Shown here piece by piece: positions 16,434 to 26,104 of a stretch of 64,000 nucleotides of DNA. The position numbers were made by a program, and so were the translations under genes. Source of the DNA: Candidatus Latescibacterota bacterium. Lineage in GTDB: Bacteria > Latescibacterota > UBA2968 > UBA8231. A model generated the notes under the pieces. It saw nothing but the letters and a program-made list of their open reading frames with translations, was not told the DNA's origin and made no database searches. The stretch covers positions 6,272,001 through 6,336,000 of the forward strand of contig OZ242214.1 in assembly GCA_965206595.1 (NCBI GenBank), given 5' to 3'. How positions within the stretch are numbered: the stretch's first letter is position 1; the number at the start of each line of letters is the position of its first letter.

Positions 16434-17138
16434 TTGCAAAATTTAATTCAAAGCGGCCGCCTGCTGATTCCACTTTATCATGGTACTTCCACTGTTTTTT
16501 TGCATGGGATTTCACAACACGGACTGGGAGGGAGGAATCCCGTCAAGGACTGGAATCTTCTATGCCTCGCAAGCGAAGTATTGGCATTAAGTAAAGCACA
16601 CTTACAAGACGCTCCTCTGTATAAAGCGCGCAGTGAGACCTTTGAAAAAATGACAAAGCAGGAAATTCGCAGATGGAATTGGCAACATGGAGACACTTAT
16701 CTTTCTCCCGCAAAATCGACAGCTATAAGATACGCAATAGGTAAAAGATTTGGCTCAGAATTGCTGACATACACAGTGGACTTCCTTGAAGAACTTTACC
16801 GCCGAGAGGTGCCCGGAGTCAAAGATGATCTATTCCGTCGATATCCTGACGTTTTTGGCATTATGGAAGCATGTCCTTCACCCATCTTAATTGAGGCAAA
16901 CAATATACCTATCAAGTCGCTACAATCCGAGGATGGAAGTAATCCCGACTCAAACTTCAAACAGATGAATGATGTCCTACTCGATGGTGATAACAATGAA
17001 GAATTACTCTTGCAACAGACGAACTTTCGTCTGACTGGACCTGTTTCAACAGAAAATTTACGGTTCTGGTTAATCAACGTATTGCAGTGGCATCCCTGGA
17101 AACCTACTTATAAGCTTTACGAACTCACTGTATCATAG
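16434..17138 (+). CDS. Low-GC hypothetical protein with ADP-ribosyltransferase-like motifs
   Basis: TTG start after AAGGA; LYHGTS...I..HGL and TYLS....AIRYA motifs of PARP/Tpt1-like ART folds. Confidence 0.55.
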   Translation: MQNLIQSGRLLIPLYHGTSTVFLHGISQHGLGGRNPVKDWNLLCLASEVLALSKAHLQDAPLYKARSETFEKMTKQEIRRWNWQHGDTYLSPAKSTAIRYAIGKRFGSELLTYTVDFLEELYRREVPGVKDDLFRRYPDVFGIMEACPSPILIEANNIPIKSLQSEDGSNPDSNFKQMNDVLLDGDNNEELLLQQTNFRLTGPVSTENLRFWLINVLQWHPWKPTYKLYELTVS

Positions 17139-17360
17139 ATACAGCCTTTTAGATGTCCCAGAGTTAGTAAAACTGGACTATGGAAAAGCCCAGCTCGTAG
17201 TTTCAGATCGAGTATCAGGCGGACCGATACGTACAGCCCCAGCCGCTAACGGAACGCTGACCACGGACGGCCGGAGCGCCCGAGTGGGCCAGCACAGCGC
17301 CGGTCTCTTACTGGATTACGCCCAGGGGGTCCACCGGGGCCGGCCTGTGGCTTCGCGGCA

Positions 17361-17783
17361 ACGAATGGGAAGGAATCTTCACACTCCCGTGCGCACCAAC
17401 CCAGTCATATAGCAAGTCCCCGGAATACAACCGCCGCGAGCACGGGTGGTCCGCCCATTGCTGTTTGGCCGGCACCATGCTGGCCACCGCACCTGTCCGC
17501 ACGCCCGAGTACCGCCGCCGCGAACCGGAAAAAGAGCCCCTCTACCAGATCCTCGCCGGGCATCTGGAAACCTTTCTCCAGCACACCCGAACGTCCAAGC
17601 ACCAACTGCCGCTCCACGTGGAGAAGGAGATCCGCGCCTACCTCGAATGCGGCATTCTGGCCTACGGGTTCGTGCGCGCCCGGTGTGAGGACTACGGGAA
17701 GAGCCGGGCCGTTGCCTTTTCCTGCAAGAAGCGGGGGTTCTGCCCCTCGTGCAGCGGCCGGCGCATGGCCGATACGGCGGCGC
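17361..17783 (+). mobile_element. IS91/ISCR-family element, 5' fragment A (terminus plus Zn-binding domain)
   Basis: YRRREPE..LY, YLECGILAYGF, AFSCKKRGFCPSC.GRRM; homologous to 35903 onward. Confidence 0.85.
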
Positions 17784-17939
17784 CCTCAAATACCAGATTG
17801 CCCCCTGAAACGCGCGAAAATCCTTCACAACGGTGCTCGGAGCATGCCCGAACGATTCGGTGCGACGACAAACGATACATCAGGAACCCTGCCGAACCCT
17901 TGACAACAGTTTCAGCGAATTGATACTACCTCCTATAAT

Positions 17940-18165
17940 AGGTGTGGAGGTTTCGAGACAAGTGTATATCCAGCCGTGAGGGTCTCCCGTATGAGGGTAC
18001 CTGAGCACGTAAGATGCGCTTGCCTTGTTGGGGACCTGAAGCGATCCTGTCACCAGGGAGGCTGCTGGGGTTCGGCTGATGTTTCCTCGGGGCATCGTCC
18101 CCTGCGATATAGACTGTCGATGCCAGCATGTTGCACTTACCGCTTGACGGGACCCGGTTCCCTGA
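17940..18165 (+). ncRNA. Candidate IS110 bridge RNA (boundaries uncertain)
   Basis: About 200 nt non-coding left end directly downstream of the TATAAT that becomes a full promoter in the circle; position matches known IS110 bridge RNAs; structure not verified. Confidence 0.45.
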
Positions 18166-19292
18166 TACGGCACCCCGGTGTTCCGCAACTTCGCCGTGCC
18201 CCACAGTCGCCAGGGCTTCGAGCAGTTGCTGGCCAAGGTAGCCGACACCGCCGCAGCCGATGCCATCCGTGTCGGCATGGAAGCCACCGTCACTACTGGA
18301 TGGTGCTGTTCGAAGCGATGACTCAGGCCGGGTACGCCGTCGGCAGTCCTCAATCCGCTGGTCATCGCCGCCCGACGCAATATCACCATTCGGGGCACCA
18401 AGACCGACCGTGTCGACTCCCATCTCATCGCCCTGGTGCTGCGCGAATCCCACGTGAAAGTGTGCGCCATCGCCGACGACCAGGTGCAACAGCTGCGAGA
18501 TCTCACGCGCTTGCGTTTCGAATGCGCTCAAACCGCTGTGGGCGAAAAGCAACGTCTCATCAGTCTTCTCGATCTGGCCTTCCCCGAGTATCAGGCCCCT
18601 TTCTCCGACCTCTTTGGCGCCTCCAGTCGCGCGGTGTTGGCTGAGTTTCCCACCGCCAAGCAGCTGGCTAAAGTCGACCTCCGCCGGCTGACCCGACTGC
18701 TCCGGGAAAGCAGCCGCGGGTGCTTCGGCCGAGCGCCGGCGCAACGACTCAAAGAAGCCGCCAAGAACTCGTGGGCCCTGAGCCGTCGAGCTGAGGCCCT
18801 GGCGATGGAGATCCGCTTCGTCGTGGAACGGCTCAATGTGCTCATCGATCAGATCCGCCAGCTGGAGAAGCGTTTCCAGACCCTCATGGTCGACCAGCAG
18901 AAGCTGTTGCAAACCATTCCCGGCCTGGGAAAGGTGTGGGCACCCACCGTCCTCGCCGAGATCCTGCCCGTCTTTCAGCCCGACAGCAAGCACGGCGCCC
19001 GTACGTTGGTTGCCACCGCAGGCGTCGATGTGCGCCTCACCGAAAGCGGCGACAAGAAGGGATACGGAAAAGGTCAAAGCGGGGCAGTCGATATCTGCGC
19101 ACCGCGGTCATGCAGGCGGCTGAAATCGCCGTCTTTCGCAGCCACGATCCACTCTTCAGCGAGGTCTACAAACGACAGAAAGATCGTGGCAAGTACCACA
19201 TGGTAGCGCTGACACATGTCGCCAACAAGATGTTACACGTGATCTTCTCGGTCTTGAAGAACGACAGGCCCTACACCCCAATACTCACGTAA
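18165..19292 (+). pseudogene. IS110 DEDD recombinase, N-terminus missing and about three frameshifts
   Basis: Frame changes near 18290, 18345 and 19075; no GID start motif found. Confidence 0.8.
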
Positions 19293-19491
19293 CGTGAACC
19301 ATAGATAAAATGCCCACGATCGGTGCTGACTGTTTACCGCTTGTCTATACTTTGACAGGCCTGAAACAACTTGCTAAGTAACATCGGTGGAGGGAAGCTA
19401 CCATGGATTACCCCAGCCAATGGCACTTGACGACCGAATCGGGGGCCGACTTGAGCCGTCCGCGAGGGGGCGGGGAGGGTTTCCCTGAGAA

Positions 19492-22400
19492 ATGACTGGT
19501 GATCTCTTCACATCTGGATTTGGCCAGGAAGCTGATCCTAAGGGCGATGCCGCCCGGCAAGCAGTCAATGCGCTACGTGGATTCGATTACCAAGTTGTAG
19601 CGGCCACTCTCGCATGGGTGGACTTGGAAGAAAGTGGACGTCTGTACCTCGAAGTCGCGGAGGACTATGCCACCATTGCAGAGCAGGCAATTCGGGCAGT
19701 CCAAGTCAAGGATACGCAGGCATCAGGGTCCGTCACTCTGAACAGCCAAGACATCAAGAGTGCAATCAAAGGCTTTGTACATCTTGTGGAGATCAATCCC
19801 GACTATTCCGTACACCTTCGGTACTTCACGACTGCGAGAATTGGACTTGAGAGAGGGATTTGCAATCCCTTCGGGGGAATGCCGGGCTTGGAATTCTGGA
19901 AGTCAGCCGCTCGACCATCTGCGAGTGTGGACCCTCTGCGGTCACTATTGGAGAGCAGTCGGTTTCCAGAACCGGTACGACGGTTTTGCAGCAGTCGCGA
20001 CGACGCAAGCCTCCGGAGGGATCTATTGGCCCGGATCCATTGGGATTGTGGCAAGCCGGGCATTGGGACGCTGCGGGAAGAATTGGAGGCCCGGCTGATC
20101 GTGGTCGGGCGGGACCACTTCGGGCTGCCCGATTCGGAAGCGAGAGGGCTAATGGGTCCCCTAATTCTAAAGGTCTTGACAAGGAGTACTGTCCCCGATG
20201 CAGACGCACGGTTCCTTACACGGGCTCAACTCTATACAGCGATCGACGATGCGACTCGCTATTCGGTACAACGCTCCACACTGGAGGCGCTTGTCCAGGC
20301 GACGGCGGGAGTAGCGCCATCCATACGCCAGGGTCTCGAAGGCAACTTTCCTACATCCATTTCAGAGACGGGTTGGCTCATCACGGGCTCGAGTCTGCCT
20401 GCCCTTGAGAGGATGATTCCGCGACCAGTCATACAATCCGCTGTGGCCAAAGCTCTCGCGGAGTTTGGGGTCGGTGTCCTTGTGGGCAGCAGTGGCGTTG
20501 GTAAGTCGGTCGTTGCGAGGGCGGTTGCCGGTAGTCACGGGGCCGGATTCTACTTGGTAGACTTGCAGGGTACTGGTGTAGGTGAGAAACGTAAATGGTT
20601 AGACATGCTCTTTGCCCGGATAGGGGGGCTGGGCCCTTCCTCACTTATTCTTGACAATCTAAATCACATCGACCCAGGTGTCGTGTTGTCTCTCGCACGT
20701 CTCCTTGAAGCTGGGCGCAGGCATCATTGTGAGGTCCTGATGACCTGTTATCACATGCCTTCCCAAGAAATGCTGGGGCAGTTGGGGCTTGACGCAAATT
20801 GCATTGTTCACTCCCCGCACTTCTCCGAAGAGGAGACGTTTGCGCTCGTCCATATGTACGGAGGAGACACGGACAGATGGGGACGGCTGGCCTACGTTGC
20901 AGGTGGTGGTGGCCACCCCCAACTCACCCACGCATTCATTCGCGGGATGGCATCTAGGCGGTGGCCAATTGAGGAAATTGGAGAAATCCTTAGTCAGGGC
21001 CTTTCCTCCCCGGACCTTCTAGCCACCCGGGATGAAGCTAGGAGGAAAGTAGCCTCCGTGCTTCCACCGGAGACTAGGGATCTGCTATATCGTCTCAGCA
21101 TTACGATCGGTCGGTTTGATCGGTCCTTAGCTCTCAAGATTGCGAGCATCAGTCCACCTCTGAGTCGGGCCGGCGAGAGTATTGACCAACTTGTGGGGCC
21201 CTGGCTTGAGAGATCGGGTGCGAATGTGTTGCGGGTTTCCCCACTTGCGAGTCAATTCGGGCAGGAGATGCTGGAGGTTTCTGAGCAGGAGCTTATCCAC
21301 AAGACTATCGCAGAGGAGATGGTAAAGAGGGGCCGAGGTAGTGCGGATGATATGAATGTCATCCTCGTCCACGCGATTGCGGGCAAATCGGCAGAAGGCA
21401 TACGGGCAATTGCTACGGCTGTGCTGACCGCTGATCCTCGTACGCAGGAGAAACTTGCAGAGCTCTTTCTGTTACACTCTTACCGCACGGATAGGCAGAT
21501 TTACGCAGGGGATCCCGTAGGGTCTCACCTGCTTCGTGTCGCCCAATTCAAACTGACTGCAGCCGCTGGCGATTGGGAGAGGCTCCCAAAGGTCGTGGAC
21601 GCCCTCATTGATCAAACCAATGAACTACCCTGTGGCGACGAGGGGAAAGCCTTGGAGTCCTTTGGTACAGCCAGTGTCCTGAGCACTATGGCAGTCGGGA
21701 ACTATCTCGAAGACTGGCTCGAACTCCTTGTGGGATATGTGAATTCACAGGGAAAAAACGAGTATGTGCGGGCTACTTTGGCGGCCGTGGGGGATGGTAT
21801 AGGTGGAGTCGGAGCAGCCGCCTTGTTTAGCTTCGGAAGTATGGACTTGAAAACCGTAGAACGACTTGAGAAGGTCATCAATGAGCTCGACAGGGTCGAA
21901 CCCCAGCTCCGACGCCTCTTGCTGACCCCGGTTGATGCAACCTTCTCCGATTACTCTTTATTGATAAACCGTCCGTGGCAATTGCAGGAGAGCCAGGAGC
22001 TCGATGCTCTGGACGCTGCAATGCGCTACGAACGGATGGCAGCGAAGACGAGATCCTGGGATATTCAAGCCTTGGCCCTGCAGTGTTCTAAGGCTCAAGC
22101 GATCATGCTAGATGAGTACTTGAACGATAGAGATGGTGCCTTGGAGGTCCTTCGTGAGGCCGAAGCAACTCTGGGCAAGGATCCGATCATTACTAGGACC
22201 ATTGCAGGGATATATCATCGACATGGCGAACATCGGGAAGCCGTGGCGGCTTTTCGTGAAATCGTGGATGAAGTTGGTAGCGATAGTGAAACTGAGCGGG
22301 CGTTTGCCCTCCGTGAGGCGGCAATCAGCGCGGCTCTGTGTGGAGAGTGGCCGGAGAGCGAGAGATTGTTCGTTGAGGCGGAGACAGCCGCCTCTGCTGC

Positions 22401-23571
22401 TGATGGCGAGGACATGCAGGTGATGGCAGTCGGCTTGTGTGGTGATGCGGCGGTGGCTGCATTTCGGGCGGGGGATACCGCCCAAGCATTAGCCCGGCTT
22501 GATAGGGCTCTATGTGACTTAGGGGAGATCGACTTAGGTGCGAGCTTTCGCGCCGCATACTGCCACCGAGTGATCCGTCATGCCGTGCTTTGGCTGAAGT
22601 CACAGATCAAGGGTTCGAGTCAATCGGCGAGTGGGAGCCCGGTCAGAATGGAGGTGGGTGCCTGCAGTAATCCAGTGCCACCTGCGACAGGAGACCTTCC
22701 GCTCGTCCATATCGATTGCGTGTGGTACCTCCTAGTTGAGGCGGAGACACTATCACGCGAGGATGTTGGAATCGCATCAAGACTGGACGAACGGCTAATT
22801 GATGGTCCGATTATTACCCAGGAGATTTACATACGTAGGGAGAGAATGTTAGGCGATGTCCAACGCCTGGATGCCGTGGGATTCTCGAAGGGTTTGGTGG
22901 AGTACGTGGAGGCAGGGGTTTATTGGGCGGAGAATCGAAGCGAGCTTGAAGAGGAGGATGGGGAAATTGAGCCAAGAAGGGGGGAGGTACCAACTCTGGA
23001 CGATCCCGGGCGTGTCGATCCCCATGCTGAACGGTTTGCGAGGACGGCCATTCTAGCGTATTGCATCCAATCGGTCATTGGGGGTAAGGCCGAGGCTCTG
23101 GAGCATTTTGAGGATGCGTTACGTGAAAGATTCAAGGGAGAGTTTTGGGGCATGGCGGTACTCGATTCTGTTCTTGATCAGTCAGCCGATGAGTTCGAGG
23201 ATGCTGGCCCGTTGGAGGAAACGGTGTGCACGATCCTTAGAAGGCTAAGGCAAGTAGAACACGTGCGGCCGAGGGAGTTCTGGATGGCGGGGCTACGCCT
23301 GCATGAGTGGATTAGTCAATCGGATTTTGAGAATCTCCTCCGGCCTACCCTTGCTAGGTGGATGAAAGTAGGCTGGGAAGGGATACTGGCTCAAGAGTCG
23401 TTTGATCTCCTGACGCCGAATCTAACTGTGCCGCCTGTCAGAGAAGTGCTGCGTAGGTGGGCAGATGACGGGGCCTCGGCAGCAAGACTGATTCTTTCAA
23501 CCTCGGAGGCGGTGGGATGTTCTCTGGAGGAATCATATCGAGAGCTCCTCTCGACAATGGCTCGAGAGTAG
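19492..23571 (+). CDS. Nuclease-STAND NTPase-TPR protein (Avs/NLR-like candidate anti-phage protein)
   Basis: 1359 aa; N-terminal ALRGFDYQ..LYLEVAED..AVQVK (Cap4/DUF4297-like nuclease); Walker A GSSGVGKS; Walker B LILDN; GGHPQL (STAND GxP); helical TPR-like C-terminal half. Confidence 0.75.
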   Translation: MTGDLFTSGFGQEADPKGDAARQAVNALRGFDYQVVAATLAWVDLEESGRLYLEVAEDYATIAEQAIRAVQVKDTQASGSVTLNSQDIKSAIKGFVHLVEINPDYSVHLRYFTTARIGLERGICNPFGGMPGLEFWKSAARPSASVDPLRSLLESSRFPEPVRRFCSSRDDASLRRDLLARIHWDCGKPGIGTLREELEARLIVVGRDHFGLPDSEARGLMGPLILKVLTRSTVPDADARFLTRAQLYTAIDDATRYSVQRSTLEALVQATAGVAPSIRQGLEGNFPTSISETGWLITGSSLPALERMIPRPVIQSAVAKALAEFGVGVLVGSSGVGKSVVARAVAGSHGAGFYLVDLQGTGVGEKRKWLDMLFARIGGLGPSSLILDNLNHIDPGVVLSLARLLEAGRRHHCEVLMTCYHMPSQEMLGQLGLDANCIVHSPHFSEEETFALVHMYGGDTDRWGRLAYVAGGGGHPQLTHAFIRGMASRRWPIEEIGEILSQGLSSPDLLATRDEARRKVASVLPPETRDLLYRLSITIGRFDRSLALKIASISPPLSRAGESIDQLVGPWLERSGANVLRVSPLASQFGQEMLEVSEQELIHKTIAEEMVKRGRGSADDMNVILVHAIAGKSAEGIRAIATAVLTADPRTQEKLAELFLLHSYRTDRQIYAGDPVGSHLLRVAQFKLTAAAGDWERLPKVVDALIDQTNELPCGDEGKALESFGTASVLSTMAVGNYLEDWLELLVGYVNSQGKNEYVRATLAAVGDGIGGVGAAALFSFGSMDLKTVERLEKVINELDRVEPQLRRLLLTPVDATFSDYSLLINRPWQLQESQELDALDAAMRYERMAAKTRSWDIQALALQCSKAQAIMLDEYLNDRDGALEVLREAEATLGKDPIITRTIAGIYHRHGEHREAVAAFREIVDEVGSDSETERAFALREAAISAALCGEWPESERLFVEAETAASAADGEDMQVMAVGLCGDAAVAAFRAGDTAQALARLDRALCDLGEIDLGASFRAAYCHRVIRHAVLWLKSQIKGSSQSASGSPVRMEVGACSNPVPPATGDLPLVHIDCVWYLLVEAETLSREDVGIASRLDERLIDGPIITQEIYIRRERMLGDVQRLDAVGFSKGLVEYVEAGVYWAENRSELEEEDGEIEPRRGEVPTLDDPGRVDPHAERFARTAILAYCIQSVIGGKAEALEHFEDALRERFKGEFWGMAVLDSVLDQSADEFEDAGPLEETVCTILRRLRQVEHVRPREFWMAGLRLHEWISQSDFENLLRPTLARWMKVGWEGILAQESFDLLTPNLTVPPVREVLRRWADDGASAARLILSTSEAVGCSLEESYRELLSTMARE

Positions 23572-25319: not shown

Positions 25320-26104
25320 GCGGCTTTTCCCTGCATGCGGCAACGCGGATCGCAGGCCCTGACCGGCGCGGGCTCGAACGCTTGTGCCGCTACGTGGCCC
25401 GGCCGGCCCTGGCGGGAGGGCGTCTGCGCATTCTCGATGCCGACCCTCTTTCCTTCGCGCTCAAAACGCCGTGGTCGGATGGGACCCGCCCTCTCCTGCT
25501 GTCTCCGATGGAACTGCTGGAGAAGCGGGCGGCTCTGGTTCCCCCCGCCCCGGTTTCATCTCCTGCGCTACCACGGGGTCCTGGCGCCCCGGGCCCGGGC
25601 CCGCGAGCGCATCGTGCCGGCCCAGCCGGTTGCCGAGCCGGCCGCGCGGCGGACGGCTCGGCGAGCCCTGCGTCCTGCGGCCATCGGCTGCGGTGGGCGA
25701 CCCTGCTGGCGCGGGTGTTTTCCTCCGACCTCAGCCAATGCGCGGCCTGTGGCCGGCGCCTGCGGATCGTCGCCGCCCTGACCGATCCGACCTCGATCCG
25801 GATCTATCTGGAGGGGGTAGGGCTGCCGGCGATGCCCCCGCCGAGGGCCCCGCCTGAGCCGCTGTTCGAGTTCGCCGCCTGACCTCCTCCGTGATTCGCT
25901 CCCGGCGCCGGGCCTACGGAGGGGTATGCCCTCAACAGTCCCTCAGGCCCCGGATTGATCCGGATACGGGCCGACAGGCAACTAAACTGTACTGCGAACT
26001 CGGTCGAAGGACGGGCAAACGATCCTCCGGGAGCTGCCGGACCCTGGCGGTGCGCTGTCCGCCTTGACCGAGAGTTCAAAAAAGGTGCCTCATTTTTCCT
26101 ATAC
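25320..26104 (+). mobile_element. IS91/ISCR-family element, 3' fragment 1 with oriIS
   Basis: GFSLHAATR..LERLCRYVARP, RYHGVLAP, WATLLARVF..C..CG; ends TTTTCCTATAC followed by TTG. Confidence 0.85.

Follow-up and report, generated by a model that had tools for sequence, protein, structure and literature searches.

The window analysed here is a stretch of 64,000 nucleotides from a Candidatus Latescibacterota bacterium, and positions refer to it unless another genome is named. On its forward strand, the remnant of an IS91-family transposase gene is fused to a right-end repeat of the same family, and this repeat is interrupted by a decayed insertion sequence of the IS110 group. The insertion extends from 17932 to 19344 (1413 nt) and comprises a left end (LE) with a putative bridge RNA gene, a frameshifted recombinase frame at about 18178-19292 recognizable from its open reading frames and Pfam matches, and a right end (RE). 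It is bounded by the dinucleotide CT and lies 4 nt inside the right terminus of the IS91-family element. We judge this reading, in which intact relatives are excised through an RE-CT-LE joint that rebuilds a promoter for a two-loop guide RNA, to be about 90% probable. The parts of the locus are as follows.

17465-17780, + strand: N-terminal remnant (zinc-binding domain) of an IS91-family transposase, fused by an internal deletion to the right end (Zn_Tnp_IS91, E 1.1e-14; homology breaks near 17780)
17781-17929, + strand: IS91-family right-end repeat that serves as the left arm of the IS110 target (10 or more further copies in the genome; about 22 nt missing before the core relative to uninterrupted copies)
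17930-17931, + strand: left core dinucleotide CT (flank-CT-CG(C)TATAA in 13 of 14 related copies, TT in one)
17932-18166, + strand: LE with the bridge RNA gene, truncated at 18166 (alignment of 14 LEs; genomes G001 and G012 have 138 nt more at 18166/18167)
17934-17939, + strand: −10 hexamer TATAAT (all 12 elements have TATAAT, TATAAA, TATGAT, CATAAT or TATATA in this position)
18167-19292, + strand: IS110-family recombinase pseudogene, without the start codon and about 23 first codons including the Asp of GIDV (in-frame stops; Pfam DEDD_Tnp_IS110 and Transposase_20 on fragments)
19293-19344, + strand: RE, with a −35-like CTGACT at 19326-19331 and a conserved tail CCGCTTGT that forms the left donor arm (tail kept in all 11 relatives with an RE)
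19345-19346, + strand: right core dinucleotide CT (RE ...CCGCTTGT-CT, then diverging flanks, in 12 of 12 elements)
19347-19350, + strand: ATAC, the right target arm, which closes the interrupted IS91-type end (uninterrupted ends read CT-ATAC; G001 has the same ATAC and then diverges)
19352-19357, + strand: TTGACA in the host flank, formerly read as a −35 hexamer (comparison with G001; enrichment count)

Ends and core of the element

Both ends are known for eleven related copies, which read flank-CT-CGTATAAT...CCGCTTGT-CT-flank; the LE of the window opens at 17932 with CCTATAAT where the family has CGTATAAT. Among them, three intact copies from G016 are 1532-1534 nt long and encode a 396-aa recombinase. 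These copies and more distant relatives share a left junction of the form flank-CT-CGTATAA and a right junction of the form GGnGTTGAC(A/T)...CCGCTTGT-CT-flank, and elements at 50-65% protein identity occur in metagenome-assembled genomes labelled Planctomycetota, TA06, Deltaproteobacteria, Desulfobacula and 'bacterium'. CT is present at both junctions in all 12 two-ended elements, and empty targets read ...C-CT-ATAC. The right flanks that follow CT vary among relatives (ATGC, AAGC, AACC, TTCC, TTCT, TTGC, TCGG). Since neither the base before the left CT nor the base after the right CT is shared, the common core is exactly two bases.

A preliminary description of this DNA had proposed different boundaries, with ends at 17921 and 19364, a core within TGA, and a TTGACA-17-TATAAT promoter formed on circularization. 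The four strings concerned are indeed present (TTGACA at 19352-19357, TGA at 19362-19364 and 17921-17923, TATAAT at 17934-17939), and joining them at TGA does give a spacer of 17 nt. By our own estimate, a shared trinucleotide with a resulting spacer of 16-18 nt turns up readily. On the left, TGA and the 6 nt that follow it sit in a repeat that has at least 10 further occurrences in the genome and extends to 17930. Uninterrupted copies of the repeat pass through this same TGA and on to GATAGTACCGATATCGGTGCC, ending ...ATTTTTC-CT-ATAC, so that 17921-17930 belongs to the IS91-type repeat rather than to the insertion. The right boundary is set by a 95-98% identical copy in G001, a genome of the same genus (locus L014), whose homology to the window covers only 17927-19353. 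Past ...GTCTATAC, which ends at 19350, the window continues with TTTGACAGG and G001 with ATTACGCAAG, and the flanks are unrelated; the TTGACA and TGA on the right are therefore flanking DNA, and of the four strings TATAAT alone is a conserved piece of the insertion. Furthermore, TTGACA is not enriched in the 64-kb window (16 occurrences on both strands versus 18.8 expected from shuffles), and alignment to the 11 related two-ended elements places the ends elsewhere, with TGA at the ends of none of them, an outcome that the preliminary description had itself named as refuting its boundaries. An element spanning 17921-19364 is thus extremely improbable, and the core is CT, as in IS621. We likewise see very little likelihood in a core of TA or TATA (17934-17937 and 19346-19349) with an LE that begins at TAATAGG. 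TATA does occur at both junctions of the copies in the window and in G001, as does TA in those of G016, but relatives from other phyla read CT-TT... or CT-TC... at the right junction and have no TA there. Such a core would also leave a 14-nt promoter spacer, versus 17 nt with CT, and would conflict with a junction in G012 that retains CT-CG between RE and TATAAT and with the CU and AG that the RNA guides carry at their core positions.

The G012 junction (locus L017, 1476-1520) is a natural chromosomal RE-CT-LE joint, in which about 29 nt of RE tail directly abut CT and the LE. It reads TTAACT-17-TATAAT, and behind it come the complete LE and a recombinase gene that is truncated; it may be the relic of a tandem insertion. 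In copy G016d (L037 961), the left junction has TT for CT and the core position of the first RNA loop is also different; its RE was not found, and it may be a natural core variant.

The window genome has a single copy of the element plus fragments of about 72% identity at 1.225 and 1.246 Mb. Solo LE fragments comprising the first 35-50 nt lie behind IS91-type ends in G000 at 5971190-5971241 and 4276088-4276121 (both − strand), one of them immediately before an ordinary gene whose product looks secreted. A copy in G013, a member of another genus (L019/L027), agrees with the G000A fragment (1.225 Mb in G000) both in its 25-nt left flank and in its match coordinates. Either this region is common to the two genera or one assembly contains foreign DNA.

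A putative promoter completed at the junction

Joining RE to LE across one CT places a −35-like hexamer upstream of the −10 hexamer with a spacer of 17 nt in 11 of the 12 elements and 18 nt in the remaining one. Of the 17 nt, 13 come from RE, 2 from the core and 2 from LE. The −35 hexamers are TTGACA (three elements), TTGACT (six), TTTACA (one) and CTGACT (two, the window and G001 copies), and a perfect TTGACA-17-TATAAT arrangement is found in 3 of 12. The hexamer of the window copy matches consensus at 4 of 6 positions. A sigma70-like promoter would be completed only when RE meets LE. The kind of promoter predicted earlier, and its −10 element, are consistent with this geometry and its conservation in relatives; the ends, core and −35 had been misassigned, the −35 candidate within the element being CTGACT at 19326-19331 and not the TTGACA of the host flank.

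Contigs from four of 24 public sequencing runs (X4, X6, X8 and X19) contain no RE-to-LE joint of either the earlier or the corrected form, a result that is silent on circles because assemblies drop rare forms. A metagenome scan with an 18-nt junction word returned 17 contigs, none with an IS110 recombinase match (tblastn, E 1e-5) or RE/LE context. These contigs were taken as chance matches, and most carry one common unrelated context.

Two further observations concern transcription near the LE. A promoter-like TTGACA-16-GATACT (10 of 12 positions) lies at 17900-17927 inside the IS91-type right end and points outward to the IS110 LE; its TTGACA is also present in uninterrupted copies of that end, and it might drive read-out. 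The RNA-library run X19 contains two short contigs, 18025-18166 and 18167-18323, that cover the loops and gene start of an undeleted G001-like copy. DNA carry-over is possible, and we take these contigs as a weak hint that an LE is transcribed somewhere and do not count them as expression.

A bridge RNA in the left end

The preliminary description had suggested that the non-coding left end encodes a bridge RNA, and covariation together with matches between guides and flanks argues in its favour. The 14 available LEs align well over their 3′ two-thirds. The structure evaluated on this alignment consists of a 5′ and a 3′ stem-loop, each with an internal loop, plus a pairing between the first six bases of the LE (as DNA) and a segment of the second loop. 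Its parts in the window, all on the + strand, are the following.

18061-18127: target-binding loop (compensatory changes in the helices; guides match the flanks of their own copies)
18061-18076 with 18116-18127: outer stem of the target loop
18079-18085: left target guide, followed by the core-equivalent CU at 18086-18087
18089-18102: distal hairpin of the target loop
18106-18110: right target guide, followed by AG (complement of the core) at 18111-18112 and AC (complement of the last two RE bases) at 18113-18114
18134-18166: 5′ half of the donor-binding loop, with the left donor guide block at 18134-18148 (matches the RE tail) and a distal hairpin at 18149-18162; the 3′ half and the right donor guide are deleted

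The fold has 27 pairs. Standard pairs occupy 95.8% of its 377 cells, and 12 of the 27 pairs are changed on both sides. None of 500 shuffles reached any of five measures, and partners slid by 1-3 columns were at most 54.6% paired. These compensatory changes support the folding of the LE into a bridge RNA with two internal loops. In our reading, the GCCAGC segment can pair differently according to RNAalifold, and the outer stems are therefore provisional.

On the 5′ side of the first loop, the 7 nt before CU repeat the top strand of the left flank of the same copy. The match is 7/7 in G001 and G010, which have different sequences, 6/7 in copy L045 and 5/7 in the Planctomycetota copy and L044. 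Poor matches are seen for G016c (2/7), G016d (1/7, in part through alignment register), the TA06 copy (3/7) and G016a and G016b (3/7 each); we read the G016a left guide as fitting with one base bulged. On the 3′ side, AG is preceded by the complement of the right flank, with 4/5 matches in 7 of 11 copies and 3/5 in the other 4. The left guides and left arms match at 58 positions in total versus a shuffled mean of 33, and the right guides and right arms at 39 versus a mean of 22.4 (0 of 20000 flank permutations in both cases); copies within one bacterial family are related, share targets and are not independent. With eight representatives, flank permutations reached the observed totals in 1 of 20000 cases on the left and 2 of 20000 on the right. 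For copy L040, the guides were taken from the row of L039, with which it has an identical first loop though not an identical LE.

The second loop relates to the ends of the element itself. Its 5′ side repeats the RE tail UUACCGCUUG, followed by one mismatch, and its 3′ side in relatives, (U/C)(A/G)CGAG, complements the CT-CGTA at the start of the LE, with 89% of cells paired. Within the first loop, the AC after AG complements the last two RE bases and the C(G) after CU repeats the first LE bases; we take these to be the 'handshake' positions of IS621.

In a different view, the LE would be a cis regulator that supplies only the promoter and 5′ leader of the recombinase mRNA, and the flank matches would be a by-product of target conservation. 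That copies within the family have one target type in common fits this view, but guides and flanks co-vary across unrelated targets, the Planctomycetota, TA06, Desulfobacula-type and L045 copies each matching 4/5 of the right arm with different sequences. In addition, the two loops, the CU and AG core positions and the 7+2 and 4+2 lengths agree with IS621 as set out in the portions of Durrant et al. (2024; PMC11208160) drawn upon here. We therefore consider a mere leader very improbable and retain the bridge RNA.

This RNA is represented by no model in Rfam. Rfam models gave no match in window 17000-20000 at E values up to 1, and in the LE of an intact relative they matched at chance level only. 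The latter includes sR42, an archaeal C/D-box sRNA, in the donor-loop region (L039 1100-1162; E 2.9, 11.4 bits versus a gathering threshold of 38). By its title, a preprint reportedly links IS110 transposases to Nop5/C-D box systems.

The target is an IS91-family tip

Repeat comparisons and domain matches indicate that the target of the element is the tip of IS91-family right ends. In addition to the Zn_Tnp_IS91 domain encoded in the window, a Y2_Tnp domain (38.7 bits) is encoded by an ORF about 230 nt upstream of one uninterrupted copy of the repeat. Four other IS110 insertions (G016a, G016b, G000A and G001) are preceded by ORFs that match the C-terminus of this Y2_Tnp ORF with E values of 1e-20 to 3e-4. 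The IS91-type right end concerned is presumably the ori-side end. A loose pattern for the empty tip occurs at 17 places in this genome, 9 of them with clear IS91-end context, and all 9 read ATTTTTC-CT-ATAC. The LE-start pattern occurs at 10 places, of which 5 continue as LE.

The left guide of the window copy, ATGTTTC, matches the canonical IS91 tip at 6/7 positions versus 4/7 for the present left flank. This better fit to the canonical tip, together with the missing 22 nt or so of flank, suggests that the flank deletion came after the insertion.

About 7 kb downstream, at approximately 26094-26104 (genome position 6298094), the window contains a further right end of the IS91 type, in which the IS110 target ...CATTTTTC-CT-ATAC is empty. 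A BLAST search of the genome with the right flank (19351-19491) found no other copy, and an ORF of 1359 aa (19492-23571) begins about 145 nt past the right boundary of the element.

Decay of the window copy

The preliminary description was right to call the locus an IS110-family element with a pseudogenized recombinase. The intact G016 recombinase has the two domains expected of the family, matching PF01548 (DEDD_Tnp_IS110, RuvC-like and N-terminal) with 134.5 bits and PF02371 (Transposase_20, C-terminal) with 60.2 bits, and fragments of the window match both weakly. In a tblastn comparison, residues 25-323 and 325-395 of the G016 protein are found in two frames of the window. There are in-frame stops in the pseudogene, including one internal TGA, and single-base indels relative to contigs of a relative (run X8), at about 18288, 18345 and 19067, amount to three frameshifts.

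The largest defect is the absence of 138 nt between 18166 and 18167 relative to G001 and G012. With these nucleotides the copy lost the 3′ side of its donor loop, which contains the right donor guide, as well as the ribosome-binding region, the start codon and about 23 codons, among them that of the first catalytic Asp (GIDV). Contigs from X4 and X6, which derive from two other studies, span 17896-18598 or more and also lack the 138 nt, so the deletion is a property of the lineage and not an assembly error.

A search of the whole genome found no intact cognate recombinase, only fragments and one distant IS110-family frame (31-34% identity) at 256 kb. Judged by its sequence, the window copy cannot work and is an inert fossil in this genome, because the right donor guide is lost, the recombinase lacks its start and first Asp and is frameshifted, and no intact cognate gene is present. 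Use of the ends and RNA in trans, which had been raised earlier, is unlikely for the same two reasons of a half-deleted donor loop and a genome without an intact cognate recombinase.

Model for intact relatives and comparison with known systems

By analogy with IS621, the intact relatives would operate as follows. Excision would join RE to LE across one CT, bringing the RE −35 (TTGACW) exactly 17 nt from the LE −10 TATAAT, and the junction promoter would then transcribe an RNA of about 290 nt. In the target, loop 1 would read 7 nt of the left arm with CT and, on the other side, CT with 4 nt of the right arm. Loop 2 would read the donor, as the RE tail with CT and as CT with the LE start, and the DEDD/serine 'bridge' recombinase would exchange strands at CT.

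IS621 targets REP sequences. IS4321 and IS5075 insert in Tn21-type inverted repeats, and IS1111-attC elements insert in integron attC sites; IS4321 and IS1111-attC belong to the IS1111 group, in which the RNA lies downstream of the gene. ISPpu9 and ISPpu10 are described, in the part of the literature consulted, as IS110-family elements that insert in REP sequences. As far as these accounts go, site-specific insertion into a repeated sequence is common to ISPpu9/ISPpu10, IS4321/IS5075, IS1111-attC and the present element, and such insertion makes the left flanks of different copies alike. The repeated target of the present clade differs from those of ISPpu9/10, IS4321/IS5075 and IS1111-attC in being the right, transposase-distal end of a rolling-circle element with a Y2 transposase (IS91 family).

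The likeness to IS621, to the extent that it is described in the sections of Durrant et al. (2024; PMC11208160) used here, is extensive. Both have a two-domain recombinase (judged by the Pfam domains of the G016 protein), a CT core and, ahead of the gene, an LE whose bridge RNA has the target loop on the 5′ side of the donor loop. In IS621, left guides pair with the bottom strand and right guides with the top strand, core included; correspondingly, in both systems the left guides have top-strand sense, the right guides are complementary, the core is contained in the guides and the right target pairing covers 4 nt plus the core. The −35, a candidate in the present clade, lies in the RE as it does in IS621, and a promoter would likewise be rebuilt across the core. 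In contrast, the LE of this clade is longer (254-339 nt from core to ATG in 13 relatives versus 191 nt in IS621) with extra variable 5′ hairpins, and the target is an IS91-family tip. The element is otherwise an ordinary RNA-guided IS110, and what is specific to the clade is its lineage, its longer LE and its target class.

Implications

For this element, the annotation of the ends, core and promoter is now corrected. The architecture of IS621, with its junction promoter and bridge RNA, appears from sequence comparison to hold base for base in a clade from uncultured lineages. A worked guide code is available for the clade (7+2 in the left arm, 4+2 in the right arm, core CT), and IS91-family tips are documented as a target class.

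We tentatively propose, at slightly less than even odds, that a clade of bridge-RNA IS110 elements is specialized on the last bases of IS91-family rolling-circle elements, with target guides that track variants of the tip. The variants ATTTTAC in G001 and ATTTGCC in G010 are each matched at 7/7 positions by the guide of the copy concerned. No description of IS91-family tips as IS110 targets was found in the portions of the literature on IS110, IS91 and bridge RNA that were consulted, where mentions of IS91 concerned IS911 or were of a general kind, and the supplements of Durrant et al. may include this clade. If the proposal is true, insertion 4 nt from the IS91 terminus would split the end used by IS91-type transposases, and the IS110 element would disable, or ride on, another insertion sequence. 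The intact G016 copies would then be ready-made natural bridge recombinases whose guide code is fully readable.
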